From NCBI GenBank assembly GCA_965203535.1, contig OZ241897.1, forward strand, positions 2,828,714 to 2,892,713: 64,000 nucleotides of DNA. The letters run 5' to 3'. Made by a program: the position numbers and the translations under genes. Under the pieces are notes generated by a model. That model searched no databases and was not told where the DNA came from. It was given only the letters and a program-made list of their open reading frames with translations. Positions 15,207 to 53,307 of this stretch are shown here, piece by piece (positions within the stretch are counted from its first letter, which is position 1; the number at the start of each line of letters is the position of its first letter). The DNA comes from Acidobacteriota bacterium (lineage in GTDB: Bacteria > Acidobacteriota > UBA6911 > RPQK01 > JAJDTT01).

Positions 15207-15210
15207 GTAG

Positions 15211-31256: not shown

Positions 31257-31266
31257 GAATCCGCCG

Positions 31267-31432: not shown

Positions 31433-31439
31433 GCGAGCG

Positions 31440-33202: not shown

Positions 33203-33222
33203 GGGCACCCCTTGTCGCCCCT
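33199..33222. repeat. GTAGGGGC-type hairpin motif, third copy in window
   Basis: GTAGGGGCACCCCTTGTCGCCCCT resembles the two hairpins inside the element at 41326..41521. Its TAG is the parB stop codon. Confidence 0.5.
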
Positions 33223-33286
33223 GCGAACCGGGAGGGCAATCGCTCTACCCTTCGGAGTTCGCGGGACTTTCGCCACGCACTTCCAG

Positions 33287-34714
33287 CTATTTCCCGATGC
33301 AGAACGTGCTGAAAATCTGTCCCAGCAGGTCTTCCACCGTCGTCTCGCCCGTCACCGCGTCCAGCTCGGACAAGGCTCCCCGCAGGTGATACAAGGGGAA
33401 TTCTTCGCTCAGACCGTCCCGATAGCCTTTCATTCCCTCGCCGAGCCGCTGCCGCGCGCGCTGCAGACATTCCTTGTGCCGCAGGTCGGTGATCACGACG
33501 CGTTCCCGCTCCCAGTCGCTGTCGGGCGCGATGGCCTCCCGGATGGCCCGCCGGAGGGCGCCCACCCCCTGACCGGTCAAGGCTGAAACGTCGGACCTGC
33601 TTCGAGCGCCCGACACCAACTCTGAAGGAATTCGAAGCACGGCCTCCAGGTCCACCTTGTTCACCACCAGCAGATAGGGCCTGTCCTTGAGCTCCTTCCG
33701 GATTCTGGCGTCCTCCGCGGAAAAATCCCTGCTGCGATCGACCACGAACAACGTCAAGTCCGACGCCCCGACGTAGTCCAGTGATTTTCGGACACCGAGC
33801 CGCTCCACCGGACTTCGCGCTCTCCGGATTCCTGCCGTATCCACCAACTGCATCGGGATGCCCTCCAGATCCACGGCCTGGTCGATGGCGTCTCTGGTGG
33901 TCCCGGCGACAGGGCTCACGATAGCTCGTTCGGTTCTACATAACGCATTGAAAATACTGGACTTACCTGCATTTGGACGGCCGACGATAGTGGCCGTGAA
34001 TCCATCCCGCAGGACCCGCCCCACGCGAAAGGAGTCTTCCAGATCCCCGATGCGTCCGGCGATCCTCCGCAAGTTCCGAAGCAACCTGTCCCGGCTGTCG
34101 GGTTCCACGGGATCTTCGACGAATTCCAACCCCGTTTCCATGTGTGAGATGACCCGCACCAGGCGCCCCTTCACCGACCGGAGCACCCGGGACAACTTGC
34201 CGTCCAATTGCTCCCGTGCGATGCGCGCCTGGTGCGCGGTCTGGCTTCGGACCAGGTCGCGGACCGCCTCCGCCTGGACCAGGTCCATCTTCCCGTTGAG
34301 AAACGCCCGTAGCGTAAACTCTCCCGGTTCAGCCAGACGGGCGCCCGCTTCCAGGAGGCCATCCACGATCTGCGCCTCCACCGCGGGGCTTCCATGGCAG
34401 GAAATCTCCACGACGTCCTCCCCGGTGTACGAGGCCGGAGCCGCGAAAAACGTCAACAGGACCCGGTCGATGCGATTCCCGTTGCGGTCCAGAAAGTCCG
34501 TCAATGATGAAAGGCGGGGTTTCCAAAGCCGGCGGTGGGAGGGGGGAAGCCGCTGGTGCACGAGACACCGGCTGGAAGGACCGCTGACGCGAATCACCTT
34601 GATGGCGCCGCGCCCCGGGGGTGTGGCGACCGCAACTATGGTATCGCTGTACGGGTCGGTGGCGTCAGGGGGTTGCGTGGATGATGACGCGCCGATTGGA
34701 TCCCGTGCCTTCAC
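33287..34714 (-). CDS. mnmE: tRNA modification GTPase MnmE (TrmE)
   Basis: 475 aa. DTIVAVATPPGRGAI N-terminus, G-domain GRPNAGKSS / DTAG / NKVD, C-terminal CIGK. The listed start overlaps jag by 50 nt, so the start is uncertain. Confidence 0.9.
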   Translation of the reverse strand: MKARDPIGASSSTQPPDATDPYSDTIVAVATPPGRGAIKVIRVSGPSSRCLVHQRLPPSHRRLWKPRLSSLTDFLDRNGNRIDRVLLTFFAAPASYTGEDVVEISCHGSPAVEAQIVDGLLEAGARLAEPGEFTLRAFLNGKMDLVQAEAVRDLVRSQTAHQARIAREQLDGKLSRVLRSVKGRLVRVISHMETGLEFVEDPVEPDSRDRLLRNLRRIAGRIGDLEDSFRVGRVLRDGFTATIVGRPNAGKSSIFNALCRTERAIVSPVAGTTRDAIDQAVDLEGIPMQLVDTAGIRRARSPVERLGVRKSLDYVGASDLTLFVVDRSRDFSAEDARIRKELKDRPYLLVVNKVDLEAVLRIPSELVSGARSRSDVSALTGQGVGALRRAIREAIAPDSDWERERVVITDLRHKECLQRARQRLGEGMKGYRDGLSEEFPLYHLRGALSELDAVTGETTVEDLLGQIFSTFCIGK

Positions 34715-35243
34715 TTTCAGTCCGAACTCCGGGCTCGTCGGCCAAGCTCAAATGAATGATTCTCCGCTCGGCCGCCGGCAGAGACTGGAACACGAACTCC
34801 CGGCCAGTGAGCCGCACCTGCTCCGCGGCCGTTCCCGCCAGCAGCCGCAACTCCCCGTCCCGATCCCTGCGGTAACCATTGCAATCGACCCAGAAGTTGC
34901 AGCCTGTCAAAGATTTACGGTAGTAGATCTGGTTGAGCAGGTGATTCACCGCGTAGAGAAAACGGGCGTTGTTGGCAAGGACCACTTCACTGTCGTGTCC
35001 GCTGAGGCGGAAACTGATCAGGTCGTCATCGAGACTTGATTCGAAGGAGAGTTCCAGGTCCAGCCTCTCCAACAAGTTCTTGAGAAACATCTCCGAACTG
35101 GCCAGGATCTCGCCATTGTCAATCTTTGGCTGAGCCTTCCACGGCCGTCCCGACCCTCGACGCCCTCGAGGACGGCGCCAGCGCTCCCGGCGCCGCCCGG
35201 ACCGGCCTCCGGACGGAGGTCTCCAGGGCCGGGACTCCATCAT
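34665..35243 (-). CDS. jag: Jag/KhpB-like RNA-binding protein (KH + R3H)
   Basis: 192 aa. R3H region ERRIIHLSLADEPGVRTESEG. Sits downstream of yidC. Arg-rich N-terminus instead of a recognisable Jag_N domain. Confidence 0.7.
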   Translation of the reverse strand: MMESRPWRPPSGGRSGRRRERWRRPRGRRGSGRPWKAQPKIDNGEILASSEMFLKNLLERLDLELSFESSLDDDLISFRLSGHDSEVVLANNARFLYAVNHLLNQIYYRKSLTGCNFWVDCNGYRRDRDGELRLLAGTAAEQVRLTGREFVFQSLPAAERRIIHLSLADEPGVRTESEGTGSNRRVIIHATP

Positions 35244-35307
35244 TTCTTCCTGGTTTTCTTGGGGGAGGACTTACGCTTCGGGGCCAACTCAGGCTTCAAT
35301 CTCTGCA

Positions 35308-36957
35308 TCAAACCTGAAACATCATAGCAAAGAGGTTGCTGAACAGAAAGTAGACCACCAAGCCGCTGGAAAAGTTCAAGAACAAGAACGTGAGGACCAC
35401 CGGCAGCAGCATCATCATGCGCCTCTGCATCGGGTCCCCCGCCGCGGGCGTCATCTTTTGTTGCACAACCATGCTCGCCCCCATGAGGATAGGGGTGATG
35501 TAGTAGGGGTCGTGCCGGGAGAGATCCTGTATCCAGCCCATGAATGGCGCCGCCCGCAATTCGATGGAGGAATCCAGCATGCGGTAGAAGGCGATAAGGA
35601 AGGGCATCTGGATGACCAGCGGCAGACATCCGCCCAAAGGATTCACGCCATGCTTCTTGTACAACCCCATCATTTCGGAATTCATCTGCTGGCGCCTGGG
35701 GTCGGTCCGCTTCATCCGCTTGTACCGGTCCTGGATGGAGCGGACCTTGGGTTGAAGCTCGGCCATCTTCTTCATGGACACGATCTGCTTGTAGCGCAGG
35801 GGGAAGAGAGCCAGGTTGATGAGGAAGGTGAGAATGATGATGGCGACGCCGTAATTGCCCACATAGGCATAGCTCAGCTTCAGGCAATAGAGCAGGGGCC
35901 TCACCAGGAGGTCGAACCAGCCGTAGTCGACGATGCCGCTCAGAAAAGGGTCTGCAAGAACCAACTCTTCCTGGACCTTGGGCCCCAGAAACAGGGTGTA
36001 CCGGGCCGTGCCCCTGAATTCGGCTTCTCCCAGCACCAACGGCGTCTCGTCCGATTCGCCGCCCTCCGCCGCCGGCAAAGGGACCACCGACAGGCGCGCC
36101 GCGCGGATCTCGCCGGGCGCGATCGCCACGCAGGTGAAATACTTGCTGTCGACAGCCACCCAGCGAGCGGCCGTCTCGATCCGGTGGGCTCCCTCCGCCA
36201 GATCGGAAGCCTCGTACTTTTCCACCGAGCCTCCCGCGTAATAGGCAACGCCGGGCCACCAGAAATCCGTAGAAGTCCCTCCCTCCGGGTCCGCCGCTCC
36301 GAGGCCCGGCCCCAAAAGGACCGAATACGTTGCCGGTCTTCCGCCGAGCTCGACCCGGGTCCGGACCTCCAGCATATGACCCGCCTCGGGAATGCTGATC
36401 TCCTCTTCGACCAGAAGACCCTGGCTCCGGTAGCTGAACGCAATCCGGGCGGGCGCCTGCACCCTGCCGGCAGCCGCTCCGGCAACCTCGAACGGCGAGG
36501 TGGCGAGCTCCAGGTCCAACTCTTCATCGTCCAGACGCAGTTGCATGGATCTGGGAAGAGTCTCGGCGAGGTCCTGGACCAGCAGCTCCACCGGTTCGCC
36601 CGACTCATCCGTGTAACGTTTGAGCTGCACACTTTCCAGCCGGGCGCCGGTGCTGCTCCAGGTCAGAACCATGTCGTCGTTCTCGACCTGAATCTTGCGA
36701 TCCTGCCCCTGGGTCGGACTCAGGGGCTCGCTGCCCGGGGGGCTGTCCTGGGAAACGCTCTCTTGCGGCGGTTCGGGTTCGACCGGCCGCTCCTCGACTT
36801 CCTGCTCCTCAGCCGTTTCGACAGCGACCGGAGGCGGAGACGGCCCCAGCCGCTGGTAAAGAAAGGGAATCAGCAGCAGAACGGCCATGGAAAGAAGCAT
36901 CGCCATGAGGAGACGCTTCTCCATGTCCATCTGTTCCGGCCCCTGACCACCCTGCAT
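35308..36957 (-). CDS. yidC: Membrane protein insertase YidC
   Basis: 549 aa. N-terminal TM helix, a large periplasmic domain, and a conserved C-terminal 60-kDa IMP core (GCLPLVIQMPFLIAFY). The start may be the Met at 36930. Confidence 0.9.
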   Translation of the reverse strand: MQGGQGPEQMDMEKRLLMAMLLSMAVLLLIPFLYQRLGPSPPPVAVETAEEQEVEERPVEPEPPQESVSQDSPPGSEPLSPTQGQDRKIQVENDDMVLTWSSTGARLESVQLKRYTDESGEPVELLVQDLAETLPRSMQLRLDDEELDLELATSPFEVAGAAAGRVQAPARIAFSYRSQGLLVEEEISIPEAGHMLEVRTRVELGGRPATYSVLLGPGLGAADPEGGTSTDFWWPGVAYYAGGSVEKYEASDLAEGAHRIETAARWVAVDSKYFTCVAIAPGEIRAARLSVVPLPAAEGGESDETPLVLGEAEFRGTARYTLFLGPKVQEELVLADPFLSGIVDYGWFDLLVRPLLYCLKLSYAYVGNYGVAIIILTFLINLALFPLRYKQIVSMKKMAELQPKVRSIQDRYKRMKRTDPRRQQMNSEMMGLYKKHGVNPLGGCLPLVIQMPFLIAFYRMLDSSIELRAAPFMGWIQDLSRHDPYYITPILMGASMVVQQKMTPAAGDPMQRRMMMLLPVVLTFLFLNFSSGLVVYFLFSNLFAMMFQV

Positions 36958-37000
36958 CGTCTACACCAATCCACGAATCGCGCCGTTCGCGACCAGACTT

Positions 37001-37210
37001 CTACGGAACCGGGTCGAATCCCCCGGCGTGCCAGGGGTGACAACACGCCACTCGCCTGAGCCCCAGCAGGATCCCCTTGAGCACTCCCTTTTTCTGAATC
37101 GCCTGGCGCATGTACTCCGAACAGGAGGGGTGAAACCGACAGGACGGGGGCAACAGAGGAGACACGAATTTCTGATACAAGCGCAGACACCCGACCAGAA
37201 ACCGCTTCAC
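37001..37210 (-). CDS. yidD: Membrane protein insertion efficiency factor YidD
   Basis: 69 aa. YQKFVSPLLPPSCRFHPSCSEY signature. Confidence 0.9.
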   Translation of the reverse strand: MKRFLVGCLRLYQKFVSPLLPPSCRFHPSCSEYMRQAIQKKGVLKGILLGLRRVACCHPWHAGGFDPVP

Positions 37211-37566
37211 CGCCTCTGCTTCCTTCTCTTCCAGCGTGAAACCACTCGAAGAAACTCTCCCTGGAGTTCCTGGAACGTTGCTGCCGCGGCGCGGCGCCGA
37301 ACGTTGACCACTACATCGGAGCAGGGAAGAATTCCCCGTTTGTTCCTGCGGAAACTTTCCCGCAGGCGCCGCCGGATGCGGTTTCGCACCACCGGCCGGC
37401 CCACTTTCCGCGACGCGGCGATCCCCAGCCGGCTGAATTGCCGCCCGTTCTCCCGGAAGTAGAGGACGAAGCAGGGCGCGAAGACCCTGTACCCTTCCCG
37501 GTAAACGGCGAGATATTCTTTCCGCGTGTGCAGGCGCTCTTCCCAGGAGAAACCGAACTGTTTCAC
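37207..37566 (-). CDS. rnpA: Ribonuclease P protein component
   Basis: 119 aa basic protein with the RNR-type motif [12 protein letters not shown]. Lies between rpmH and yidD. Confidence 0.85.
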
Positions 37567-37780: not shown

Positions 37781-38644
37781 TTACATGCCCTTCCTCTCAT
37801 GCGTCGCATCCCTGGGGTAACAACCCAGCACGTTCAGGAACTCCGTCAATTCACCGAGGTGGCTCAACGCGTTGCGCACCCGCGTCTCACCGGTGTTCCC
37901 GAGAAAGTCGAGGTAAAACAGGTACTCCCAGGGACGCCCGTGGATGGGGCGCGACTCGATCTTGGTGAGGTCGATGTCCCTCAGCGCGAAGACGCTGAGA
38001 CATTTGAAGAGCGCCCCTGCGGCATTCTTGAAGCTGAAGACGATGGAGGTCTTGTCCGCGGCTTCGGACACCGAGGATCTGCTCGAGAGCAGAACGAAAC
38101 GGGTGAAGTTCTCCTCGCTGTCCTCGATCCGCTCCATCAGCACTTTCGCGCCATAAAACCGTGCGGCGTTCCTGCTGGCGATGGCGGCATGGTCCCGGAG
38201 GCCTCCTTCCACGATCTCCTTGACGCTTCCGGAAGTGTCATAGCCGGTTTCCCGGACCAGGTGCGGATGCCGTTCGAAGAACCGCTCACACTGATCCAGC
38301 GCCACCGGATGGGAGCGGACCGTTTTCACGTCGTCGAAGCGGCCTCCGGCCAGCACGATCAGGCTGTGCTCTACGGGCAGATTGGTCTCCTGCCGGATTC
38401 TCAGGCCATGGCGGACCAGAAGATCGTAGTTCCGGTGAATCGATCCCGCCAGAGAATTCTCGATGGGAATGACGCAACAGCCACATTCTCCCCCGGCCGT
38501 ACGCTGAAAGACTTCGTCAAACGTCCGGCAGCAGAGAAACTCCACCGGCGCCGGGACCATCTGCCTTGCCGCCTGCTCGCTGAACGATCCGCGTTCTCCC
38601 TGAATGGCGACTCGGGTCGCCTTTCCCTTGTCGTACCGATCCAC
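37781..38644 (-). CDS. pheA: Prephenate dehydratase (PDT + ACT domains, no chorismate mutase domain)
   Basis: [16 protein letters not shown]...[11 protein letters not shown]...TRF PDT motifs and a C-terminal ACT domain. The start must be downstream of the tRNA at 38702: GTG 38644 or TTG 38650. Confidence 0.8.
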
Positions 38645-38701
38645 GTCCAACCGGAACCTCCATTTCCGCTCTCGTCCAACCTCCAGGCCAGCGCCACCCG
38701 G

Positions 38702-38797
38702 CGGAGGCACATGGGAATCGAACCCACCGGCCCCGGATCTCGCCGCGGCCCGACTGATTTTGAAGACCAGGCCCGTCACCAGACGAGAAGTGCCTCC
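38702..38797 (-). tRNA. selC: tRNA-Sec (anticodon UCA)
   Basis: Hand-folded 96 nt: acceptor GGAGGCAC/GTGCCTCC (8 bp), D stem CTCGTC/GACGGG (6 bp) with loop TGGT, anticodon loop CTTCAAA, ~26-nt variable arm, T arm GTGGG-TTCGATT-CCCAT, discriminator G. CCA is not encoded. Confidence 0.85.
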
Positions 38798-38864
38798 GTG
38801 CCGTCATTCTAGCACTCAAGAGGCTCTTTTCCGGCTGAACGGCGGCTGCTACCATCACGCTGGA

Positions 38865-40031
38865 ATGACCAAGACGCGGGGACGGCGGCTCCCGGAGTCC
38901 GTACAATCTCTCTGCCGCAGCGCCGCGCGCTTGCGCGACCAGGTCAAGGGCCGGACCATCAGCTTTTCGCCCAAAGTCTTCCTCCCGCTGACCCGCCTCT
39001 GCCGCGACCGATGCGGCTACTGCGTCTTCCGGCAGGATCCCAATGACGAGACTCCGCCCTACATGACCCCGGACCAGGTTCTCGCCGTGGTTCGCCGGGG
39101 AGAAGAACTGGGCTGCCGCGAGGCCCTCTTCGTCCTGGGCGACCGCCCGGAGCAAAGCTACCCCGGGGCGCGCCTCTGGCTCCGTCAGCACGGATACGAC
39201 AGCACCATCGAGTATCTCTACGACATGTGCTCTCTGGTTCTGGAGGAGACCCGGCTCTTTCCCCACAGCAATCCCGGCATCCTCACCCGGCGCGAGTTGG
39301 CGTCCCTGAAACAGGTCAACGCGTCCATGGGCCTGATGCTGGAAAGCACGAGCCGCCGACTCAGCGAACCGGGAGGACCGCATCATCGGAATCCGACCAA
39401 GGACCCCCAACTTCGACTCCGAGTGCTGCGGGACGCGGGCGAGCTGAAGATCCCCTTCACAACCGGCCTCCTGGTCGGAATCGGAGAAACCGGCCAGGAA
39501 CGGATCGATTCCCTTCACCAACTCCGGCGTCTTCAGAGCCGGTACGGCCACCTGCAGGAATTCATCATCCAGAACTTTGTCCCCAAGCCGGGAACTCCCA
39601 TGGAGGCGGCGCCGGGCGCATCCGGCCGGGAGATGATGGAGACCATCTCGCACGCCCGTCTGATCCTGGGCGGCTCAGCCAACCTGCAGGCGCCCCCCAA
39701 TCTCTCGGGCCGCAACCTCCGGTATCTGGATTACCTGGATGCCGGAATCAACGATTGGGGCGGCATTTCTCCGCTGACCATCGATTTCGTGAATCCCGAG
39801 GCGCCCTGGCCTCGAATCGCCGCCCTGGCCCGTCAAACCGAATCGCGCGGTTTCCGGCTCAAGGCCCGCTTTCCCGTCTATCCCGAATACTTTCAGGGTC
39901 CTTCCTCATTCCTGCCCTCGACTCTCCACTCCCGCTTGCGGTCGGAAGCGGATCCGGACGGGTACTTCCCGGCCGGTTCCCTCCGGACGCATCCCCCTGT
40001 ATCAACCGGGGAGGCCGCCGGTGCCCACTGA
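38865..40031 (+). CDS. cofG: FO (7,8-didemethyl-8-hydroxy-5-deazariboflavin) synthase subunit CofG
   Basis: Internal Met MTKTRGRR... Radical-SAM CRDRCGYC motif. The sequence has typical CofG character (YMTPDQVL...GCREALF). The upstream part of ORF 38604..40031 overlaps the tRNA region. Confidence 0.85.
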   Translation: MTKTRGRRLPESVQSLCRSAARLRDQVKGRTISFSPKVFLPLTRLCRDRCGYCVFRQDPNDETPPYMTPDQVLAVVRRGEELGCREALFVLGDRPEQSYPGARLWLRQHGYDSTIEYLYDMCSLVLEETRLFPHSNPGILTRRELASLKQVNASMGLMLESTSRRLSEPGGPHHRNPTKDPQLRLRVLRDAGELKIPFTTGLLVGIGETGQERIDSLHQLRRLQSRYGHLQEFIIQNFVPKPGTPMEAAPGASGREMMETISHARLILGGSANLQAPPNLSGRNLRYLDYLDAGINDWGGISPLTIDFVNPEAPWPRIAALARQTESRGFRLKARFPVYPEYFQGPSSFLPSTLHSRLRSEADPDGYFPAGSLRTHPPVSTGEAAGAH

Positions 40032-41521: not shown

Positions 41522-42277
41522 CTAGCGAAACAGGTCCCGATCCGCAGGCCGGACCAGGTTCGATGCATCGCCCGGCCCTTCTTCCAGGCGCACTCCCCGG
41601 ACCAGGGCCGCCGGCGCCCGCCGGCGCTTTCCCATCACCAGCTCCGCGGCGGAGGCGATTTCGTCGGCACGGGCGATGCAGGTGGACTCCAGCGTTCGGC
41701 CGAACCCGTCTTTTCTGCCCCGGTAGTCCGACAACGGCATTCCGCCGGCCACGCCGATGGCCACGTTCACCTGCCCCTCGCGCCAGGGACGGCCGAACGT
41801 GTCGGCAATGATCACCACCAGGTCCCACCCCGTCGCCTCTTTCAGGCCCTCCCTGATGTCGGCGGCAGAGCGGTCCGGATCCTCCGGAAGCAGGGTGGCC
41901 ATTCCCTCCGGACTGTTGGAGAGATCCACCCCGGCATTGGCGCACACGAACCCGTGCCTGGTTTCAGCCAGCAGCACCCCGCGATCCATCTTCACGATCC
42001 TTCGGCTCTCGGACAGGGCCAATTCGACCACCCTGGGGTCCCGGCCCCATTCCCGCGCCCAGGAATCGGCCAACGGAGACGGGGTGACCGCCGCCAGGGG
42101 AACGATTCGCCCCTCCGCCTTGGAAACGATCTTGTGAGCCAGCACCAGAATGTCTCCTGAGCGGGCCTGCAAGGGGAGCTTCGTCAGCGCCTCTGCCAGG
42201 AGCGGGACCAGGGCGTCCCCCGGCTTCACTTCGGGGAGTCCCGGCAGGGCCAGGATGCGCACGCCGGCGTCATTCAT
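41522..42277 (-). CDS. cofE: F420-0:gamma-glutamyl ligase CofE (stand-alone, 251 aa)
   Basis: Internal Met MNDAGVRILALPGLPEVKPGD...SKAEGR...CANAGVD...ADTFGRPWREGQ...DLFR. No C-terminal FMN/nitroreductase domain. Confidence 0.85.
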   Translation of the reverse strand: MNDAGVRILALPGLPEVKPGDALVPLLAEALTKLPLQARSGDILVLAHKIVSKAEGRIVPLAAVTPSPLADSWAREWGRDPRVVELALSESRRIVKMDRGVLLAETRHGFVCANAGVDLSNSPEGMATLLPEDPDRSAADIREGLKEATGWDLVVIIADTFGRPWREGQVNVAIGVAGGMPLSDYRGRKDGFGRTLESTCIARADEIASAAELVMGKRRRAPAALVRGVRLEEGPGDASNLVRPADRDLFR

Positions 42278-42944
42278 CAAGGTTCCACCCCTGCTCGGCC
42301 AGGCGAGCGACGAGGCCATTGTCGGAGAGATAACTTCTGGTCGCCGCCCCTCCCTTCCGGCGCCAGAACCGCAACAGGTCTTCCGGACCGTCCAGGTCGA
42401 GGCCGAACCGCGGGTTCGAGAGCACGGTGGCGGGAACCCGGGCGCGGCGCGCCTCCGCCAGATGCCGGCGCAGGCTGTCACGGCCGAAGCGGGACGGAAA
42501 GGCATCCGGCGGCATTCTCAACAGGGCATTGGTGCCCCGGCCGTCCCGCGAGGGCACCAGGAGCGCCGCCGGAGCGGCCAGCGGGCGGCCCAGCAAAGCG
42601 TCCACATCCCGCCCCTCGATGAGAGGGACGTCAAGCGGCACCCGCAGAACGCACGTTGCTCCCTGTTGGCGAAGCGCGGCTGCGCTCTCGTCCACGGAGC
42701 GGCTCTCGGAGGTTTGGGACCGCTCCCGGATGAACTCCCACCGCCGCCGGGCGGCATAGGCCGCAAGCTCAGGGTCCCGGCCGGCGACCACCACTTTGCC
42801 CGGCATTTTCGCGCACGCCAGAGCCCTGCCCACATCCTCCAACATGGCCCGGACCAGCCCGATCCTTTCCCGGCGGGACAGCCAGGGAGCCATTCTCCGT
42901 TTGGCTTGGGCCAGTTCCTTGACCGGCAACAGAACGACGTTCAC
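42270..42944 (-). CDS. cofC: 2-phospho-L-lactate (or PEP/3-PG) guanylyltransferase CofC/FbiD
   Basis: GTG at 42944 overlaps the cofD stop (GTGA). Product VNVVLLPVKELAQAKRRM... (224 aa), typical CofC N-terminus. The rest of ORF 42270..43643 overlaps cofD. Confidence 0.7.
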   Translation of the reverse strand: MNVVLLPVKELAQAKRRMAPWLSRRERIGLVRAMLEDVGRALACAKMPGKVVVAGRDPELAAYAARRRWEFIRERSQTSESRSVDESAAALRQQGATCVLRVPLDVPLIEGRDVDALLGRPLAAPAALLVPSRDGRGTNALLRMPPDAFPSRFGRDSLRRHLAEARRARVPATVLSNPRFGLDLDGPEDLLRFWRRKGGAATRSYLSDNGLVARLAEQGWNLDE

Positions 42945-43921
42945 ACCAATCGCAACAGGGCGCGCGCCAGAGCCCGTTTCGCGCCGGAGGTGTCCATGAC
43001 GGTATTTCGGACCACGACCCGCATGCCCAGACGTTCGATGGCCGGTGCGCTTCCGGCATCGCGTTCGTCCAACACGAAAACATCCAGGAGACCCCGGTAG
43101 ATCCTGGCAACCCCTTCGGCCGAGACCGGATGCCCCAGTTCTTCCAGCATTTTCGCCGCCGGTCCCTTGAGGGCGCGCCCGCCGACAATGGGACTGACCG
43201 CCGCCACCAAGGCGCGACTCGCGCCCACCGCCCGCCGGATTCCGGGGACCGCCAGGATGGGCCCCACGCTGATGAAAGGGTTGCTGGGACAGATGACCAC
43301 GATCCGGGCGTCTCGAATGGCCTCTTCGACCCCCGGTCCGGCGCGCTGACGACTCAAACCTGTGTATTCGAAGCCCTGGACCCGAGGCGCGCACTTCTCC
43401 CGGACCAGGTACTCCTGAAGATGAAGGCGCCCGGCATCGGTCTTCACCAGAGTCGGCGTGTAGCCTTCCGCCATGGGCAGGACCGAAACCTCCACCCCCA
43501 GGGCCTCGCAGAGGTGTGCGGTCACGGCCGCCAGACCCCACCCCTGGTTCAAAAGCGACGTCCGCCGGAGATGGGTCGCCAGATCCTGGTCTCCCAACCC
43601 GAACCAGGTGTCCGCCCCCAAGCGGCCAAGGGCCTTCAAGCAACGGAACGTGTCCCCCTCGATGCCCCAGCCCCAGGCCCGGTTGGACAGGCCCGCCAGG
43701 GTATAGGTGATGGTGTCGAGATCCGGGCAGATCCGGAGCCCGAAGGCTTCCAGGTCATCCCCGGTATTCACGACGACGGACAGGCGGCTTCCGAGACCTT
43801 CCCGCGCCAGGCCCCAGACCAATTTTGCGGCACCCACCCCTCCGGCCAAGGCCACCACGGGAGCCGCGTCCGGCCTGGAGAATTCATCGCCGGTCTCGAC
43901 ACGAGCAGGAGCTGCCGCCAC
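42941..43921 (-). CDS. cofD: 2-phospho-L-lactate transferase CofD/FbiA
   Basis: 326 aa. ALAGGVGAAKL...VVVNTGDD...ICPDLDTITYTLAG motifs. Confidence 0.85.
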   Translation of the reverse strand: MAAAPARVETGDEFSRPDAAPVVALAGGVGAAKLVWGLAREGLGSRLSVVVNTGDDLEAFGLRICPDLDTITYTLAGLSNRAWGWGIEGDTFRCLKALGRLGADTWFGLGDQDLATHLRRTSLLNQGWGLAAVTAHLCEALGVEVSVLPMAEGYTPTLVKTDAGRLHLQEYLVREKCAPRVQGFEYTGLSRQRAGPGVEEAIRDARIVVICPSNPFISVGPILAVPGIRRAVGASRALVAAVSPIVGGRALKGPAAKMLEELGHPVSAEGVARIYRGLLDVFVLDERDAGSAPAIERLGMRVVVRNTVMDTSGAKRALARALLRLV

Positions 43922-43927
43922 GGATCT

Positions 43928-44587
43928 TCAAAGCCCCACGACACGGAAACGCGACTCGTGAACCCGGTATCGGCGATTGATGCCGATCAGAAGGGCGCTC
44001 ATTCTCTCCAGGGTCCGGGCCGTGTCGAGCCGGCCGGCGTCCACCGTCCGGACACCTGGCCACCGGCTCAGCACCTGCGCCACCTCACGCTTCCGGCGCC
44101 CGGAATTTCCACACACGAAGACATCGCAATCGAGAGGAGCCGCGACCTCTTCCAGAAGGCGGGCCGGAACCGTCTTCAGGGCCGCCACCAGGGCGCCCGG
44201 ATCAGGAAGAAGCGCAGCCAGTTGCTCGCTGCCGGAGGCGGCCTCCAGCGGGGTCATCCGTATCCGGCCGGCGTCGAACGACACCGGCACCGTGACATCG
44301 ACCCAGGTGGTTTCAGGCGCGGCGCGCGGCGCACACCGGGACACGAGATCGGCAGCTGCGGAAAAAGGCGCCGCCAGGAAGAGAACTTTCGACTGCGCCG
44401 CGACCTCCCGGTTCAGCGATCCCCGGATATGGGCCCCGCCCCCCAGAAGACGATTCAACTCCGACGCCGTCCCGGCCGCCCGGCTCCGGCTCCGGGATCC
44501 TACCATGACCTCGCAGCCCGCTTTGGCCAGACGCAGTGCAATGCCTCGGCCTTCCTGTCCGGTGCCGGCGAGCACGCCCAGTGTCAC
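43928..44587 (-). CDS. fno: NADPH-dependent F420 reductase (Fno/NpdG family)
   Basis: 219 aa. N-terminal Rossmann LGVLAGTGQEGRGIALRLAKAG. First gene of the fno-cofD-cofC-cofE string. GTG start. Confidence 0.75.
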   Translation of the reverse strand: MTLGVLAGTGQEGRGIALRLAKAGCEVMVGSRSRSRAAGTASELNRLLGGGAHIRGSLNREVAAQSKVLFLAAPFSAAADLVSRCAPRAAPETTWVDVTVPVSFDAGRIRMTPLEAASGSEQLAALLPDPGALVAALKTVPARLLEEVAAPLDCDVFVCGNSGRRKREVAQVLSRWPGVRTVDAGRLDTARTLERMSALLIGINRRYRVHESRFRVVGL

Positions 44588-44862
44588 AACCCACCCTCAT
44601 TCTTGCCTGCCTGGCGGGACCCCGACCCGGGATCCACCCTTGCAGGAAGCCGCATTACAGCAAAGCGCGACCACCCCCACAAGTCTCGCGTTCAGTGGAT
44701 TTTGTCCGTCCGGCGCCCCTGTCGTCACCGATCCGGAAGGCTTGCGGGGGAGAGAGCGTCCGCGTAATCTCTCCACTGCGTTGATGAGTTGATGGAGGCG
44801 CCGCCAGCAACATTTTCAGGGCGGTGCAACGGTTCGAGCCCGGATGTTCCCGGTAGCGCTCA

Positions 44863-47800
44863 ATGAACTCGGTAGCTGAATATCTCAAGGGCAAGACACT
44901 GTTCATCACCGGAGCCACCGGTTTCCTGGGACAGTGCCTGGTCGAGAAAATCCTCTGGGCGGTGCCCGACGTCAAGCGCGTCTATGTCCTGATCCGCCCG
45001 CGAACGAACCTGCGCGGCGCGGTCGTGACCGCCCGGATGAGACTGGAAAGGGAGCTCTACCAAGCCAGTTGTTTCGACCGTCTCCGAAGCAAGCTCGGCA
45101 GCGATTTTGCGGCCTTCCTGAAAGAAAAACTGGTCCCGGTCTCGGGCGATCTGTCCAGGGACGACCTGAACATCGACGAGCAGACGCGGCTTCGCCTTCA
45201 GGGCGAAACCGACATCGTCATCAACAGTGCCGCCGTCGTCTCCTTCGACGCCCCGCTGGACGAAGCCTACCACCTGAATGTGCTGGGCGCCGAGCGGGTC
45301 GCCCGGTTTGCCCAGTCCTGTGACGGCTGCGTCCTGGTGCATGTTTCCACGGCCTATGTGTGCGGCGCCGTCGTCGGCTCGGTCCCGGAAACGATTCCGG
45401 AGGCTCCGGTGCGGACCGGCGAGGCATTTCCCGTGCGCGCCTTCAGCGACGTGGACCTGGACATCGAGCACATCGAGAAGATCCTAGACTCGGTCCGAGA
45501 GCGCGCCTATGCGCCCGAACTCGAGCGGGAATTCGCGGCAGCGCTGCTGCGGCGATTCAGGCGCTCGAAGGGGGGGCGCAATGTTCGGCGGCGGGAGAAG
45601 ATCGAGAACCTCCGCAAGAAATGGATCCAGAACCAGCTCTCCCAGGAGGGGATGAGCTGGGCTCGCGAGCGGGGCTGGAACGACACCTACACCTACACCA
45701 AGTCCATCGGCGAACGGATCGTCTTGCGGACCCGGAACGGGGCTCCGACCATCATCATTCGCCCCGCCGTCATCGAAAGCGGCTTTTCCGAGCCCAGCCC
45801 CGGATGGCTCGAGGGGCTTCGCATGGCCGATCCACTCATCGCCGCCATCGGCAAGGGCCGTCTCCGGGCCCTGCCCCTGAGCCCCAAGGTCATCATCGAC
45901 CTGGTGCCCGTGGACATGGTGGTGAACGCGTTGTTGGCGTCGCTTCCCGCCACCTCGAACGCAACGGGCGTCCGGATCTACCAGGTGGCCACCGGGTCCT
46001 GCAATCCCATCACGTTGGGCTATCTCTACGATCTCATCTACCGCTATTTCAAAAGAAACCCCATGTTCGACAGGTCGGGGCGGCCCATCAACATCCGCTA
46101 CCTCCGCTTCCCGAAGCCGGCCAGTTTCCGCTTGCAACATCGACTCAAGGCGCTGCCCTTGAACCTGGCGGCCGGCGCCTTGGACAAGCTTTCCGTACTC
46201 GACTCACTCAACGGCGTCCAGCGCTACAAGCGGCGCCTTTCGGCGCTGACGGTCGCGCACGAAAAACTCCATTACTACGGAGAAATCTACGAGCCGTATC
46301 TGAATCTGAATTGCCGCTTCGGAATCGAGAACACGATGGGCCTCCTGGACAACATGTCCCCGGAGGAGCGGGAAGTCTTCAACTTCGACGTGACGCGCCT
46401 GAATTGGCGCCACTACATTCAGAACATCCACATCCCGGGGGTCAAGAAGTTCATCCTGAAGATGGAGGGAGCCGGGACACTGGAGCTGGACGTCCAGCCG
46501 GCCGGCGAAGGCGGATCCGTCTCGACCATCAACGACCTCCTCGCTTACAGCGTATCCCGTTACTCCGCCAAGACCGCGCTCCAAATGCAGCGCAACGGCG
46601 AGTGGATCCGCTATTCGTACTCGGATCTTCAGCGCCGGGCCGGGGCCGTGGGCCGGCAACTCCGGATCGAGGGCCTGGCCAAAGGCGATCGAGTGGTCCT
46701 GTTTGCGGAGAACCAACCGGACTGGGGCGTCGCGTACCTCGGCGCGGCCTCTCAGGGACTCGTCGTCGTTCCCCTCGATTCCCAGTCGTGGCACCGTGAG
46801 GTCTGGTCCGTCGCCCGCTTCACCGGGGCCCGGGCCATCCTGGCTTCGTCACGCACCATCGAGCGGTTGCCGCCTGAAAGCATGGCGCGGAATGAAGCCG
46901 GAGAGGTCCCGGTCCGGCTCCTGAACATCAACGAGCTGGCCCAACCGTTCGGCCTGCCGCAATGCCCGCGCAGCACCGGCGCCGTGGATCCCGCTTCGCC
47001 GCCGGCCGCCGCCGGCCCGGTGACGGTCGACGCCCAGGACCCGGCCTCCATCATCTTCACCACGACCACCGCAGCCGACCCCAAGGGCGCCGTCCACACC
47101 CATTCCAGCTTTCTCAGCAATCTCCACGGCATGAACCGTTACCTGGCGGCGGAGGAGACGGATCAGATCCTTTCGGTGCTCCCTCTCTACCATGCCCTGG
47201 AGTTCACGTGCGGCTTTCTGTCCCCCCTGTTTGGCGGTGCTACCGTCACCTACCTTCACTCCCTGAAGCCGAGAGTCATCCTGAAGACCATGCGGGAGAC
47301 GGGCACCACCTGCATGTTGGGCGTCCCCAGCCTCTATGCGCTGATCCGGGACGACATCAACCGGCGCACACTGCGCGCCTCCAAGTCATCTCTGAAGTCC
47401 AACCTGGTGGCCAGGTCACGCCAACTCAGCAAGTCCATCGACAAGACCTTCGGTAAGAACCTGGGACGGCAGCTCTTCGCTCGGGTACACCAGGAATTCG
47501 GGGGCAGGATCCGGGCTTTCGTCAGTGGCGGTTCTTCTCTCGGAGATGAACTCTACGACGATTTCAAGGCCCTGGGCCTGACGATCTACGAAGGCTACGG
47601 GCTCACCGAGACCGCGCCGGTCCTCACGGTCAACCCGCTGAACAGGAGCCGCCGGGGATCGGCCGGCAAGCCGTTGCCCGGGACCGAGCTGCGGATCTTT
47701 CAAGCCGATGACCGGGGCGAAGGCGAGATCATCGTCCGTACGCCCAGCCTCATGAAGGGTTACTACAAGAACCCGGAAGCCACCCGCGCCGTGATGCGCG

Positions 47801-49239
47801 AGGGCTGGTTTCACACCGGGGATCTGGGGTGGGTGGACGAGGACGGATACCTCTACATCACGGGGCGCAAGAAAAACGTCATCGTCACCGGGGCCGGCAA
47901 GAACGTCTATCCCGTGGACCTGGAGGCCATCTACCGCAATGTTCCGGCTGTCGACGACATCTGCGTGGTGGGCACTCCCAAGGGACTGACCGAAGACGTC
48001 CATGCGGTCATCGTGCCCAAGAAGGAGACGTTGCGGGATGTGGCGGCGCCGGAATGGCCACGGGCCATGAAGCGGGCGACTCGCGCACTCGCCCGCCAGC
48101 TACCCGGATACCAGCGGCTGCAGCACATTCATCTTTCGGAGACGCCCCTGCCGAGGCACGGTGACGGGTCGCTCGCCCGCGACGTGATCCTGCAAAACGT
48201 GCGCCGGAGCGTCGCCCGCGCTCGAGCCCGCGGCGGCCCGGGGGCGCGGCCCCGCGGCAGCGACGTCGCCATGGAGCTGACTCGGGAGTTGAGCCGAATC
48301 TCGGGGATTCCCTCGGCGGAAATCACGCCCGACTCCCATCTGTTCACCGACGTGGGCCTGGATTCCCTCGCCGCCATGGAGCTGCTGATTCAACTGGAGC
48401 ATCGATTCGGCATTTCTCTTTCGGAAGAGCGCGTCGCCTCCCTGGTGAGCTTTGGAGATCTGGTCGCCGCGGTGAAGGAGAGCCGGGCCGCAACCGAAGC
48501 CGGCACAACCGGCACGGCCGCCGTCCGGTCCGCCCTGCCGTGGTCCCAGCGGCCGCCCATCGACCGCGCCCTGCTCGGGCTCTCCTTTTCCGCCCTGCGG
48601 CTCCTGTACGCAAGCTACTTCCGGTTGCGGCTGCGATTTCCGGAACACCTTCCCCGGGACGAGGCCTACGTCATCGCCGCCAACCATTCCAGCCATCTCG
48701 ACAGCGGCGCCATCATCGCCGCCCTGGCCGGGGCCCTGGGATCCAACCAGGCAAAAAAGCTCCATCTTCTCGGCGCCCGCGACTACTTCTTCAACAACCC
48801 CGTTCGCGCCTGGTTTTTCAGCACCTTTCTCAACGTGGTGCCCATCGAACGGGAAGAAACCTCGTTGGCGGGACTCCGGATCATCCAAACGATCCTGCAG
48901 GAAGGCGAACCCATTCTCATCTTTCCGGAGGGCACGCGATCGCGGACCGGCGAACTTCGATCCTTCAAACCGGGCCTCGGTCTCATCGCCCGGGAACTCA
49001 GGGTGCCCATCGTCCCGACCCATATCGACGGCGCCTACCGGGCGCTGCCGGCGGGACGCAACCTTCCCCGTCCCGGAAGGCTGGAAGTGACTTTCGGCAA
49101 ACCGATCAGGACCGAGCGGTATTTCTCGGACGGCGCCGAGGAGTCCCGCGTCCACCTTTACCGAAAGATCGCCGACGACGTCCGAGAGCATGTCGTGCGC
49201 TTGGGGAGCCGGGACGGGGGCGGCGACGAACCGGTTTGA
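44863..49239 (+). CDS. Four-domain lipid-metabolism enzyme: fatty acyl reductase + AMP-dependent ligase + acyl carrier domain + 1-acylglycerol-3-phosphate acyltransferase-like (ElbD-like)
   Basis: 1458 aa. ITGATGFLG and YTYTK (Tyr codon 45688); IIFTTTTAADPKG (47050..47088), YGLTETAP, FHTGDLG, GRKKNVIVTGAGKNVYP; GLDSL carrier serine (48364..48366); NHSSHLD (48682..48702) and FPEGTRS. Confidence 0.85.
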   Translation: MNSVAEYLKGKTLFITGATGFLGQCLVEKILWAVPDVKRVYVLIRPRTNLRGAVVTARMRLERELYQASCFDRLRSKLGSDFAAFLKEKLVPVSGDLSRDDLNIDEQTRLRLQGETDIVINSAAVVSFDAPLDEAYHLNVLGAERVARFAQSCDGCVLVHVSTAYVCGAVVGSVPETIPEAPVRTGEAFPVRAFSDVDLDIEHIEKILDSVRERAYAPELEREFAAALLRRFRRSKGGRNVRRREKIENLRKKWIQNQLSQEGMSWARERGWNDTYTYTKSIGERIVLRTRNGAPTIIIRPAVIESGFSEPSPGWLEGLRMADPLIAAIGKGRLRALPLSPKVIIDLVPVDMVVNALLASLPATSNATGVRIYQVATGSCNPITLGYLYDLIYRYFKRNPMFDRSGRPINIRYLRFPKPASFRLQHRLKALPLNLAAGALDKLSVLDSLNGVQRYKRRLSALTVAHEKLHYYGEIYEPYLNLNCRFGIENTMGLLDNMSPEEREVFNFDVTRLNWRHYIQNIHIPGVKKFILKMEGAGTLELDVQPAGEGGSVSTINDLLAYSVSRYSAKTALQMQRNGEWIRYSYSDLQRRAGAVGRQLRIEGLAKGDRVVLFAENQPDWGVAYLGAASQGLVVVPLDSQSWHREVWSVARFTGARAILASSRTIERLPPESMARNEAGEVPVRLLNINELAQPFGLPQCPRSTGAVDPASPPAAAGPVTVDAQDPASIIFTTTTAADPKGAVHTHSSFLSNLHGMNRYLAAEETDQILSVLPLYHALEFTCGFLSPLFGGATVTYLHSLKPRVILKTMRETGTTCMLGVPSLYALIRDDINRRTLRASKSSLKSNLVARSRQLSKSIDKTFGKNLGRQLFARVHQEFGGRIRAFVSGGSSLGDELYDDFKALGLTIYEGYGLTETAPVLTVNPLNRSRRGSAGKPLPGTELRIFQADDRGEGEIIVRTPSLMKGYYKNPEATRAVMREGWFHTGDLGWVDEDGYLYITGRKKNVIVTGAGKNVYPVDLEAIYRNVPAVDDICVVGTPKGLTEDVHAVIVPKKETLRDVAAPEWPRAMKRATRALARQLPGYQRLQHIHLSETPLPRHGDGSLARDVILQNVRRSVARARARGGPGARPRGSDVAMELTRELSRISGIPSAEITPDSHLFTDVGLDSLAAMELLIQLEHRFGISLSEERVASLVSFGDLVAAVKESRAATEAGTTGTAAVRSALPWSQRPPIDRALLGLSFSALRLLYASYFRLRLRFPEHLPRDEAYVIAANHSSHLDSGAIIAALAGALGSNQAKKLHLLGARDYFFNNPVRAWFFSTFLNVVPIEREETSLAGLRIIQTILQEGEPILIFPEGTRSRTGELRSFKPGLGLIARELRVPIVPTHIDGAYRALPAGRNLPRPGRLEVTFGKPIRTERYFSDGAEESRVHLYRKIADDVREHVVRLGSRDGGGDEPV

Positions 49240-49282
49240 CCCGGCAAGCGCGGCGCCTCTAGAATGGCGTCCTTCTCTGGCC

Positions 49283-49374
49283 GGAGAGGTGCTGGAGTGG
49301 CTGAACAGGGCTGCCTGCTAAGCAGTTACTCGGGGGAACCTGGGTCGGGGGTTCGAATCCCCCCCTCTCCGCCA
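49283..49374 (+). tRNA. tRNA-Ser (anticodon GCU)
   Basis: Hand-folded 92 nt: acceptor GGAGAGG/CCTCTCC, anticodon stem-loop GCTGC-CTGCTAA-GCAGT, long variable arm, T arm GGGGG-TTCGAAT-CCCCC, encoded CCA. Confidence 0.9.
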
Positions 49375-49441: not shown

Positions 49442-50245
49442 TCAGAAACGAAACACCAGCAGAAGCTGAGGGAGCACTTCGTCCGCGTCTTCAAACCCGA
49501 ACTTGTTGACCCAGACGTGCATTTCTATCCCTGCGAAGAAGCGGCCCGGCCGACGGGCGAGCGCCTTGCCCAGGTCCAGACGCAATTGGGGCTGAAACAG
49601 GATCCAATACGGCGCGCGGAACCCGAACTCGGTGTCTCGCGGACTCTGCCATTCGCCGTGTCCCTCGAACGAGAATGAGGCGCCGCCGATCTCAAAGGGC
49701 AGGCCCCAGTTGAAATCGACAAGATGACTGTTGCCCTCCTTCGGGGCGCCGCCGGCCGCCACTCCCCGGTTACGATCCACCAGGTACACGTAATCGAGGT
49801 TCGCAAAGGCGAAACCGGGAAGATCGAGCTGAAAGCGGAAACCGGGACCGACCTTGAGCACCTTGGACTGAGCTCCCCAGTTCAGTCCGCCCAGGGGGCC
49901 GATCCCCCGGATCGGTCCCCACGACACTTTCTGTCCGGTGATCGCACCCAGGTCGAAGTAGGGAAACCACTCCATGTAGATGTCCCGGTCCGCGCTCGAA
50001 CCCGAGCAGCAGGTCATGTCCACGAAGAAAAAATTCTCTCCGTGGCTCCAGCCGCTGGCGTGCTGAAGGGTCAGGATATTCTGGAATCCGCTGGGACTGA
50101 CCAGGTGGGGCCGCAACGAGCTGCCACCCTGGTATTGAATCTCGGTAACGCTCCAGCCCTGGGCCAGAATGTTTCCGCCGATCACCAGTGGAGCAATCGC
50201 AATCAGAACCAGAGCGGCGGGGCAACGGCAACTTGTCTTTGTCAT
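49442..50245 (-). CDS. Outer-membrane beta-barrel channel, Tsx/nucleoside-channel-like
   Basis: 267 aa. Signal peptide, the LQHASGWSHGENFFFVDM segment typical of the Tsx-like family, and a C-terminal ...VFRF aromatic terminus. Confidence 0.65.
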   Translation of the reverse strand: MTKTSCRCPAALVLIAIAPLVIGGNILAQGWSVTEIQYQGGSSLRPHLVSPSGFQNILTLQHASGWSHGENFFFVDMTCCSGSSADRDIYMEWFPYFDLGAITGQKVSWGPIRGIGPLGGLNWGAQSKVLKVGPGFRFQLDLPGFAFANLDYVYLVDRNRGVAAGGAPKEGNSHLVDFNWGLPFEIGGASFSFEGHGEWQSPRDTEFGFRAPYWILFQPQLRLDLGKALARRPGRFFAGIEMHVWVNKFGFEDADEVLPQLLLVFRF

Positions 50246-52623: not shown

Positions 52624-53307
52624 ATGAACGCCGATGACGCGCCCTTGTCGCAACGCATTTGCCTGGCTGCAGGAAGTACGGCCGGTTGGGCCCTGATCTG
52701 GAGTCTCGGCACGCTCCTTCGATACCGGGTCGAAGGCTGGGAACATTTTGCCCGGTTGAATCGCCGAGGCACTCCCTTCATCTTCAGCTTCTGGCACAAC
52801 CAGATCTTTTGCGCCACCCATTTCTGGCGATTCCGGGAGATCGGCGTGATCACCAGCCAGCACGCCGACGGGGAGTACATGGCCCGCATCATCCGCCGGT
52901 TCGGGTACTTTCCGGCCAGGGGATCCAGCCGCAGAGGCTCGACTCGGGCCCTCCTTCAGCTCAAGCGTCATCTGGCCGGCGGCCGGCCCGTGGGTTTCGC
53001 CGCCGACGGGCCCGTGGGTCCGGTCTACAAGGTCAAGCCGGGGCCGCTCTGGCTCTCCATGAAGACACGGATTCCCATTCTTCCGTTCCACATCCAGCCG
53101 CGCCGATTCTGGGCGGGTTCCGGCTGGGACGGTTTTCGAATCCCCAAGCCCTTCTCTCCAGCCTTGGTGAAGATCGGACAACCGTTCCTGGTGCCCAGCG
53201 GACAATCCGCCAAGGACTGGCTGCCCAGGTATCAGGAGACGATGGATGCCCTCAAGGAATACTGCGAGTCCTACCCCTGGAACCGCGAGAGAAGGCTGGA
53301 GGGCTGA
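52624..53307 (+). CDS. DUF374 family protein (lysophospholipid acyltransferase-like)
   Basis: 227 aa. FSFWHNQIF...SQHADGEYMARI...ARGSS.RG...ADGP.GP motifs recalled for DUF374. Confidence 0.65.
   Translation: MNADDAPLSQRICLAAGSTAGWALIWSLGTLLRYRVEGWEHFARLNRRGTPFIFSFWHNQIFCATHFWRFREIGVITSQHADGEYMARIIRRFGYFPARGSSRRGSTRALLQLKRHLAGGRPVGFAADGPVGPVYKVKPGPLWLSMKTRIPILPFHIQPRRFWAGSGWDGFRIPKPFSPALVKIGQPFLVPSGQSAKDWLPRYQETMDALKEYCESYPWNRERRLEG

Follow-up and report, generated by a model that had tools for sequence, protein, structure and literature searches.

A stand-alone gene for a candidate ElbD-type ether-lipid enzyme near the replication origin of an uncultured acidobacterium

We discuss here an ElbD-like gene found in a stretch of 64,000 nucleotides, referred to as the window, from an Acidobacteriota genome (assembly GCA_965203535.1, contig OZ241897.1, positions 2,828,714 to 2,892,713). 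The gene lies at 44863..49239 of the window on the plus strand and by its sequence is a member of the ElbD family. We think it probable that the product is a multifunctional ether-lipid enzyme of an uncultured Acidobacteriota lineage, encoded near the replication origin and acting by the three-step mechanism proposed below. ElbD homologues in Acidobacteriota are already published and presence alone opens no new question. What appears to go beyond the published picture is the derived stand-alone state of the gene in a housekeeping context close to oriC, and the degeneration of adenylation motifs that seems to extend across its clade.

The formation of ether bonds by bacteria is relevant to the "lipid divide" that separates Bacteria from Archaea, and to the origin of the brGDGTs (glycerol dialkyl glycerol tetraethers of the branched type) that are read as palaeoclimate proxies. 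The prime suspects as producers of brGDGTs are the Acidobacteria, and bacteria are known to reach ether lipids by only three routes, of which ElbD is one. Some Acidobacteria make alkyl ether lipids, the elb cluster has been proposed as the route, and the cluster is reported in subdivision-4 Acidobacteria. In the Black Sea elbD homologues are present in 15 of 97 metagenome-assembled genomes (MAGs) of Acidobacteria (PMC11868695), and a 2026 preprint describes elbD in MAGs of Acidobacteriota, Poribacteria and Latescibacterota, both clustered and stand-alone, with diacylglycerol kinases adjacent. Stand-alone elbD has been reported from sponge and Black Sea metagenomes. The first-pass annotation of the window, made from the sequence alone, had noted that elb homologues were under discussion for ether-lipid-producing Acidobacteria, and the literature bears this out, stand-alone genes included.

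The protein and its proposed function

The open reading frame (ORF) is uninterrupted, begins with ATG and encodes 1,458 amino acids before its stop codon. Its third-position GC content of 0.82 is typical for genes of the window, which has 63% GC overall. The first-pass annotation had read four domains in this one ORF, and Pfam finds the expected domains in the stated order, all six Pfam matches being above their curated cut-offs. The motifs it quoted can each be found in the translation, with the codon for the phosphopantetheine serine exactly where it was placed. The features of the gene are as follows.

44863..49239, plus strand: ElbD-like multidomain gene (ORF list, translation, Pfam, alignment to M. 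stipitatus ElbD, dN/dS)
44905..45930, plus strand: NAD_binding_4, extended short-chain dehydrogenase/reductase (SDR) of fatty-acyl-CoA reductase (FAR) type, residues 15-356 (Pfam E 7.7e-62)
44908..44931, plus strand: TGATGFLG, residues 16-23, NAD(P)H site of the reductase
45688..45702, plus strand: YTYTK, residues 276-280, with catalytic Tyr276 and Lys280 of the reductase (translation)
46198..46461, plus strand: "Sterile" (PF03015), FAR C-terminal domain, residues 446-533 (Pfam E 6.2e-16; score 58.8 bits, cut-off 35.4)
46549..47766, plus strand: AMP-binding, N-terminal subdomain of the ANL ligase, residues 563-968 (Pfam E 7.1e-70)
47059..47088, plus strand: A3 P-loop, TTTTAADPKG replacing TSGTTGxPKG (alignment to FadD13, clade comparison)
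47920..48156, plus strand: AMP-binding_C, C-terminal subdomain of the ANL ligase, residues 1020-1098 (Pfam E 1.3e-06)
48169..48171, plus strand: A10 position just past AMP-binding_C, Ser1103 replacing the catalytic Lys (alignment to myxobacterial ElbD)
48277..48474, plus strand: PP-binding acyl carrier domain, residues 1139-1204 (Pfam E 4.6e-13)
48364..48366, plus strand: phosphopantetheine attachment site Ser1168 in GLDSL (translation)
48625..49026, plus strand: Acyltransferase, PlsC type (lysophospholipid acyltransferase, LPLAT), residues 1255-1388 (Pfam E 1.4e-23)
48685..48702, plus strand: acyltransferase motif NHSSHLD (HX4D, His1275 and Asp1280), residues 1274-1280
48922..48942, plus strand: acyltransferase motif FPEGTRS, residues 1354-1360

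The ligase also has YGLTE at residues 912-916, TGD at 985-987 and GRKKNVIVTGAGKNVYP at 1001-1017. The motifs of the reductase (GxxGxxG, YxxxK), the carrier (the DSL serine) and the acyltransferase (HX4D, EGTR) are intact and are conserved in both of the clades described below, the D-S-L of the carrier being invariant across the alignment of homologues. For the reductase domain the closest PDB structure is that of a fatty acyl-CoA reductase (7eoz, E 5.7e-84), and the combination of NAD_binding_4, a C-terminal Sterile domain above its cut-off and a YxxxK site is that of the alcohol-forming FAR1/MS2-type enzymes. The product of the reductase would be an aldehyde or an alcohol, between which the sequence does not discriminate.

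Comparison with orthologues of 87-93% identity gives a ratio of nonsynonymous to synonymous substitution rates (dN/dS) of 0.15-0.16 overall. The value is below 0.45 in every segment tested and 0.07-0.24 across the catalytic domains, with 0.10-0.15 for the ligase and 0.07-0.22 for the acyltransferase. Given this purifying selection the ORF is a functional gene and not a chance ORF, a pseudogene or a decaying fusion. The close homologues have the same start codon and length.

ElbD of Myxococcus xanthus has an N-terminal FAR1-like domain followed by acyl-CoA synthetase (ACS), acyl carrier protein (ACP) and AGPAT-like domains (PMC9131029), and is encoded in an operon of elbA (epimerase), elbB (HAD), elbC (unknown function), elbD and elbE (epimerase) (PMC9131029; PMC13012113). 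Our comparison was made with the M. stipitatus orthologue (P0429, 1,474 amino acids), standing in for the M. xanthus protein. It has the Pfam domains of the ElbD architecture and sits in an epimerase-HAD-Lar_N-ElbD-epimerase operon, which is the published elbA-E layout. In BLASTP residues 4-1442 of the window protein align with 9-1437 of P0429, colinearly, with 32% identity, 49% positives and 619 bits. The first-pass annotation had linked this combination of activities to ElbD. The architecture agrees with both the published description and the M. stipitatus domains, and the end-to-end alignment supports the ElbD-like assignment at the level of family membership.

In M. xanthus both alkyl and vinyl ether lipids are blocked when elbD is deleted. 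ACS activity and ACP activity of the protein have been demonstrated in vitro, and production of i15:0 aldehyde is elbD-dependent (PMC9131029; PMC13012113). AGPS in Myxococcus is a minor route and is dispensable for the ElbD route (PMC9131029).

From the chemistry of the domains and these myxobacterial data we propose a mechanism of three steps. The ANL domain would bind a long-chain fatty acyl group and pass it as a thioester to the carrier domain of the same protein, on the phosphopantetheine arm at Ser1168. The FAR-type reductase (TGATGFLG, Tyr276/Lys280) would then use NAD(P)H to reduce the bound thioester to the fatty aldehyde or alcohol that gives the alkyl chain, and the PlsC-type acyltransferase (His1275/Asp1280, FPEGTRS) would esterify a backbone of the glycerol-phosphate or dihydroxyacetone phosphate (DHAP) type. 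Together the three steps could supply precursors of 1-O-alkyl glycerolipids. The substrates, the order of the reactions, the ether-forming step and ether-lipid production by the host itself are the parts of this scheme that we infer.

Family and partner genes

A scan of one genome per species with two strict peptide patterns gave 327 relatives, of which the best 80 were used for all analyses of loci. These 80 are from Acidobacteriota and Gemmatimonadota MAGs, plus one of Thermoguttaceae and a few that are unclassified. The genome of the window is not itself a species representative, and the closest match in the scan is 93% identical to the window protein. The protein databases hold hundreds of proteins of 1,440-1,470 amino acids that share its domain set. 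The closest homologues, 86-98% identical, are from closed MAGs of 5-6 Mb labelled Acidobacteriota, and a second tier of full-length proteins, 54-61% identical, is from Acidobacteriota and Gemmatimonadota MAGs. The host is an uncultured acidobacterium in which the ElbD-like gene is probably vertically inherited. The earlier reading had made its case depend on an acidobacterial genome, and the nearest relatives of the protein place it there.

A family-wide HMMER search with residues 1-1200 of the window protein, together with a BLAST matrix, divides the full-length family into two superclades, with about 30-32% identity between them as against 37-47% within each. The window protein is in clade A, which also holds proteins of Poribacteria, Fervidibacterota and Gemmatimonadota. 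The 20 cluster representatives include Poribacteria, Gemmatimonadota, Fervidibacterota and Binataceae, and no myxobacteria. A representative of clade B (P0204) used as query finds orthologues in Myxococcus, Corallococcus, Archangium, Hyalangium, Melittangium and Anaeromyxobacter, and in Planctomycetota.

The first-pass annotation had described the gene as a singleton with no elbB- or elbE-like partner in the window, and this holds, as tblastn with M. stipitatus ElbA, ElbB, ElbC and ElbE gives no match anywhere in the 64 kb. Among the Pfam-annotated ORFs of the window we also find no AGPS, PlsA/Ger or radical-SAM Tes/Mss protein. An ORF at 35308..36957 that occurs in 34 of the 80 loci was considered as a radical-SAM (Tes-like) partner and rejected, since Pfam identifies it as YidC. 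The co-occurrence is plain synteny near oriC.

The situation in the relatives was examined by clustering the neighbours in the 80 loci and by running the Myxococcus Elb proteins against them with tblastn. A lipid kinase (DAGK_cat/YegS_C) is directly upstream on the same strand in 38 of the 80 loci, and a homologue of ElbB (HAD, about 36% identical) starts 2-100 nt downstream in 37. A homologue of ElbC (Lar_N, 33-48% identical) is present in 24 loci and a Zn-dependent alcohol dehydrogenase (ADH) in 17. The usual layout in Acidobacteriota and Gemmatimonadota is kinase-ElbD-ElbB-ADH-ElbC (loci L009-L080, for example L020 at 8815..17755, L021 and L044), and epimerases of the ElbA and ElbE types are found in none of the 80. 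The linkage to ElbB and ElbC in its relatives makes the clade of the window protein genomically part of an Elb-type system. As this linkage is common to both superclades we see it as the strongest computational argument that the chemistry in the window's clade may be of Elb type. The ElbC-like proteins are more conserved than ElbD, with 64-75% identity among the best 120 of 1,052 matches.

In a neighbour-joining tree the window lineage (8 related loci) and a sister clade (6 loci, 59-60% identical) nest within the radiation of proteins linked to the kinase, ElbB and ElbC. ElbB and ElbC are absent within 10 kb from all 14 loci of these two groups. In the sister clade the lipid kinase still stands at this site, with the F420 genes on one side and ElbD on the other, and in the window lineage it is gone. 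The position of the lineage inside a partner-linked radiation means that the singleton state is derived, through loss or relocation, and the pattern suggests that partner genes were lost locally in the window lineage.

A function outside ether-lipid synthesis was also considered. The protein could recycle or remodel fatty acids, or produce neutral lipids. In one version it would act in the manner of Aas, activating fatty acids onto the carrier and then acylating lysophospholipids, and in another its reductase domain would provide the fatty aldehydes or alcohols from which wax esters or signalling lipids are built. The likeness of the ligase-carrier-acyltransferase part to the bifunctional Aas enzyme, with its match to NCBIfam PRK08633, "acyl-[ACP]--phospholipid O-acyltransferase" (E 4.4e-64), the fatty alcohols made for wax esters by stand-alone FAR enzymes (PMC11948995), the homologues of ElbD in Pontiella, in which ether lipids were not detected (PMC11868695), and the local lack of any Elb partner gene in the window lineage all fit such a role. 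However the scores stay far below what these models require (PRK08633 217 bits, cut-off 1,221; PRK06814 171 bits, cut-off 1,349), both over partial stretches only and with the domain order reversed, so that the protein falls outside the Aas families, and the window has no wax synthase gene. The four-domain fusion is moreover colinear with ElbD over its full length, and its relatives have ElbB and ElbC homologues linked to it. We regard such a function as unlikely and the ElbD-type role in ether-lipid synthesis as the better account of the protein.

The ligase domain in the two superclades

ATP-dependent adenylation by ANL enzymes makes use of the P-loop and the lysine of A10, and formation of the thioester makes use of A8. 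The canonical adenylation motifs of myxobacterial ElbD, TSGTTGxPKG at A3 and the lysine at A10, are absent from the window protein. In the alignment with FadD13 (3r44) TTTTAADPKG of the window protein stands opposite TSGTTGHPKG, and at A10 its LPRHGDGSLAR aligns with LPRTSTRKVKR of the myxobacterial protein. The alignments to PDB sequences end before this segment, so that A10 was assigned from alignment to other members of the ElbD family.

The ligase differs between the clades. The P-loop is TSGTTGxPKG in clade B, TTgTAVDPKG in the Acidobacteriota/Gemmatimonadota group and TTTTAADPKG in the window lineage, and the A10 consensus is LPrTxTRKVKR in clade B and PLPRxxdGxxdR in the Acidobacteriota/Gemmatimonadota group. 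Of the clade-B proteins 85 of 86 have the A10 lysine, as against 11 of 118 from the latter group. In the wider clade A all full-length representatives examined have another residue in place of the second glycine of the P-loop, and the A10 lysine is missing in several separate lineages and kept in some proteins. Motifs A5 (YGLTE), A7 (TGD) and A8 (GRxKDVIVTGAGKNVYP) are invariant. The degeneration goes unmentioned in the one elbD survey that we checked, the 2026 preprint on sponge symbionts.

One explanation, which leaves family and end product as they are, is that the ANL domain of the Acidobacteriota/Gemmatimonadota proteins no longer adenylates free fatty acids, and that it takes an acyl group already activated (as acyl-CoA, acyl-ACP or acyl-AMP) and only transfers it to the carrier in cis. 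We put this forward tentatively, as something possible but on balance improbable. It would account for Ser1103 in the window protein together with the group-wide loss of the lysine and the degenerate P-loop, and for the invariance of the motifs for acyl and AMP binding and thioester formation in a ligase on which purifying selection is strong. Wang et al. (2018, Nat Chem Biol 14:730) reportedly described an ANL enzyme that is non-adenylating by nature. However the suggestion comes purely from sequence and the A10 assignment depends on alignment to clade-B ElbD. Another basic residue could stand in for the lysine, and since some proteins of the wider clade A keep it, its loss may be tolerated in some other way. 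Myxococcus ElbD for its part has demonstrated ACS activity.

If the loss of adenylation motifs is biochemically real, it would alter the first step of the pathway as drawn for Acidobacteriota and Gemmatimonadota. A still broader proposal, which we find doubtful, is that a large Acidobacteriota/Gemmatimonadota branch of ElbD has dropped adenylation and uses the ligase as an acyl-transfer module, the system being stripped to ElbD alone in the window lineage. Were this so, a single protein supplied with activated acyl chains might be enough for the alkyl branch of ether-lipid synthesis in bacteria, possibly for brGDGT precursors, and the conserved F420 neighbourhood described below would hint at an unusual supply of reductant.

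Several points weigh against the protein being an ether-lipid enzyme that acts as we propose. With the A10 lysine and both P-loop glycines lost, the loading step by the ligase may not work as drawn. The identity to myxobacterial ElbD is only about 32% and the protein is in a separate clade. Genetic proof of a requirement for elbD in ether-lipid formation is limited to M. xanthus. Even for Myxococcus ElbD no one has demonstrated the reductase or the acyltransferase activity (PMC9131029). ElbB, ElbC, ElbE, a lipid kinase and AGPS are all missing from the 64-kb window, and among the best 120 of 1,052 matches to an acidobacterial ElbC query no copy is on a contig of the window lineage. An ElbD homologue is also no proof of ether lipids, as Pontiella illustrates (PMC11868695), and Solibacter usitatus produces brGDGTs without ElbD.

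Genomic setting and comparison with known systems

The surroundings of the gene in the window are as follows.

28.7-38.8 kb: gidA, gidB, parA, parB, mnmE, jag, yidC, rnpA and pheA, the origin-proximal set (gidA to rnpA 28723..37566)
38.6-44.6 kb: F420 cluster of cofG and cofH (plus strand) and cofE, cofD and fno/npdG (minus strand)
41522..42505, minus strand: cofE, in the same run as fno and cofD
42941..43921, minus strand: cofD, in the same run, which fno begins (NCBIfam TIGR01915/TIGR01819 and Pfam F420_ligase for the run)
43928..44587, minus strand: fno/npdG, NADPH-dependent F420 reductase (TIGR01915 npdG; score 154 bits, cut-off 149.8)
44588..44862, no strand: intergenic region from which fno and the ElbD-like gene diverge (nine-genome lineage alignment, many fully invariant columns)
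Downstream of the ElbD-like gene: outer-membrane protein (putative), pcm, rnhB, prephenate-dehydrogenase-like, DUF374, VWA protein, folE, prmC, prfA, rpmE and rpsA
60700..63510: dnaA and dnaN, with GC falling as low as 0.57 at 60-62 kb

Between rnpA and dnaA there are some 23 kb of other genes, the ElbD-like gene among them. This setting bears on a further alternative, that the protein is the core of a pathway like those of nonribosomal peptide synthetases and polyketide synthases (NRPS/PKS), giving a lipid-derived natural product and not a membrane lipid. The logic of adenylation domain, carrier and reductase resembles that of carboxylic acid reductases (CAR), one of which (5mso) matches residues 581-1214, and of NRPS-like enzymes, and genome-mining tools count elb-like loci among the biosynthetic gene clusters (bioRxiv 10.64898/2026.06.23.733905). 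But the genes around it near oriC (yidC, rnpA, pcm, rnhB, dnaA) are housekeeping genes, the synteny is kept across many Acidobacteriota and tailoring genes are absent. With this setting and conserved synteny the gene looks like one of core lipid metabolism and not part of an accessory cluster, and we consider a specialised-metabolite role very unlikely.

The upstream gene on the opposite strand encodes the NADPH-dependent F420 reductase, so that the first-pass description of the ElbD-like gene as divergent from fno is right. F420 genes adjoin the ElbD-like gene in 17 of the 80 loci, in three separate parts of the tree (L001-L008, L011, L020, L023, L040, L054, L061, L062, L067 and L074), and cofC was not recognised in the window. 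We have not adopted a functional tie between F420 and ElbD, since inherited synteny explains the adjacency equally well. A 545-codon ORF on the plus strand at 43130..44767 is set aside as an antisense artefact over cofD and fno, as its codon-position GC is atypical and it is the minus strand that carries the actual genes.

The intergenic region has near-invariant stretches, for example 44645..44669 and 44740..44798 (about 85% of columns identical in the latter), among nine genomes whose coding synonymous divergence (dS) is 0.26-0.47. At 44749..44774 it can form a hairpin, GGAGAGA-N12-TCTCTCC. No Rfam family matched the region, and since the consensus fold has only 3 covarying pairs we claim no RNA element. 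The region probably carries the promoters of both genes together with a 5' leader, and may act as a promoter/operator or as a leader.

Some other features of the neighbourhood may be recorded. A tRNA-Sec gene at 38700..38797 on the minus strand (Rfam 69 bits; anticodon TCA by ARAGORN) implies use of selenocysteine by the host. It lies within the 5' end of the long cofG ORF (38604..40031) and also within the minus-strand ORF that is the longest across the gene for prephenate dehydratase (region 38517..39653), and the actual start of cofG is probably downstream of it. A tRNA-Ser(GCT) gene is at 49283..49374 on the plus strand, 44 nt past the ElbD-like stop codon, which is itself overlapped by a good sigma-70-like site (TTGACC-18-TAGAAT, 49236..49265). 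Next on the minus strand, at 49442..50245, is a gene for a 267-residue protein with no Pfam or NCBIfam match, which looks like an outer-membrane beta-barrel to judge from its N-terminal signal peptide and C-terminal ...LLLVFRF. Only the window lineage (8 loci) has a gene for this protein at this position, last after rnhB-pcm. The DUF374 protein (52624..53307, plus strand, about 3.4 kb downstream of the ElbD-like gene) is syntenic in 16 related loci, and we take it to belong to the lysophospholipid-acyltransferase-like superfamily.

The gene adds a complete and well-supported ElbD-type enzyme from an uncultured acidobacterial lineage with a closed genome, and as it stands alone among core genes it offers a clean construct for heterologous work.

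With regard to known systems, the nearest is ElbD of M. xanthus (MXAN_1528, UniProt Q1DC43; Lorenzen et al. 2014), which has the same four domains in the same order. The myxobacterial and window proteins are colinear over about 1,440 residues, with identical catalytic motifs in the reductase, carrier and acyltransferase. They differ in that the window protein is in a separate clade with a degenerate P-loop and A10 position, both of which are canonical in Myxococcota, and in that its gene is near oriC beside F420 genes and lacks the elbA, elbB, elbC and elbE neighbours of the Myxococcus locus.

The elb-like loci of Acidobacteriota, Gemmatimonadota and Poribacteria MAGs are closer in sequence, with full-length proteins 54-61% identical and the same degenerate ligase motifs, and synteny with yidC-rnpA-pheA or pcm-rnhB is common to many Acidobacteriota, as in the window. 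The window lineage (8 loci) differs from its sister clade in lacking the upstream kinase, and neither has ElbB or ElbC within 10 kb.

The eukaryotic peroxisomal enzymes ACSL, FAR1 and GNPAT (plus AGPS) cover the same three chemistries, which are acyl activation, reduction to fatty alcohol and acylation of DHAP or glycerol 3-phosphate, and the FAR domain of the window protein carries the Sterile C-terminal domain typical of FAR1-type enzymes. In the window protein, however, the activities are fused and dependent on a carrier protein, and AGPS is absent from the window. CAR (adenylation domain, peptidyl carrier protein, reductase) similarly has an ANL domain that loads a carrier and an SDR-type reductase that reduces the thioester, but its reductase is C-terminal and of the NRPS-terminal type, whereas the window protein has a FAR-type reductase at its N-terminus and an added acyltransferase. 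E. coli Aas (2-acylglycerophosphoethanolamine acyltransferase / acyl-ACP synthetase) also joins a PlsC-type acyltransferase to an ANL acyl-ACP synthetase, but in the opposite order and with neither a fused carrier nor a reductase.

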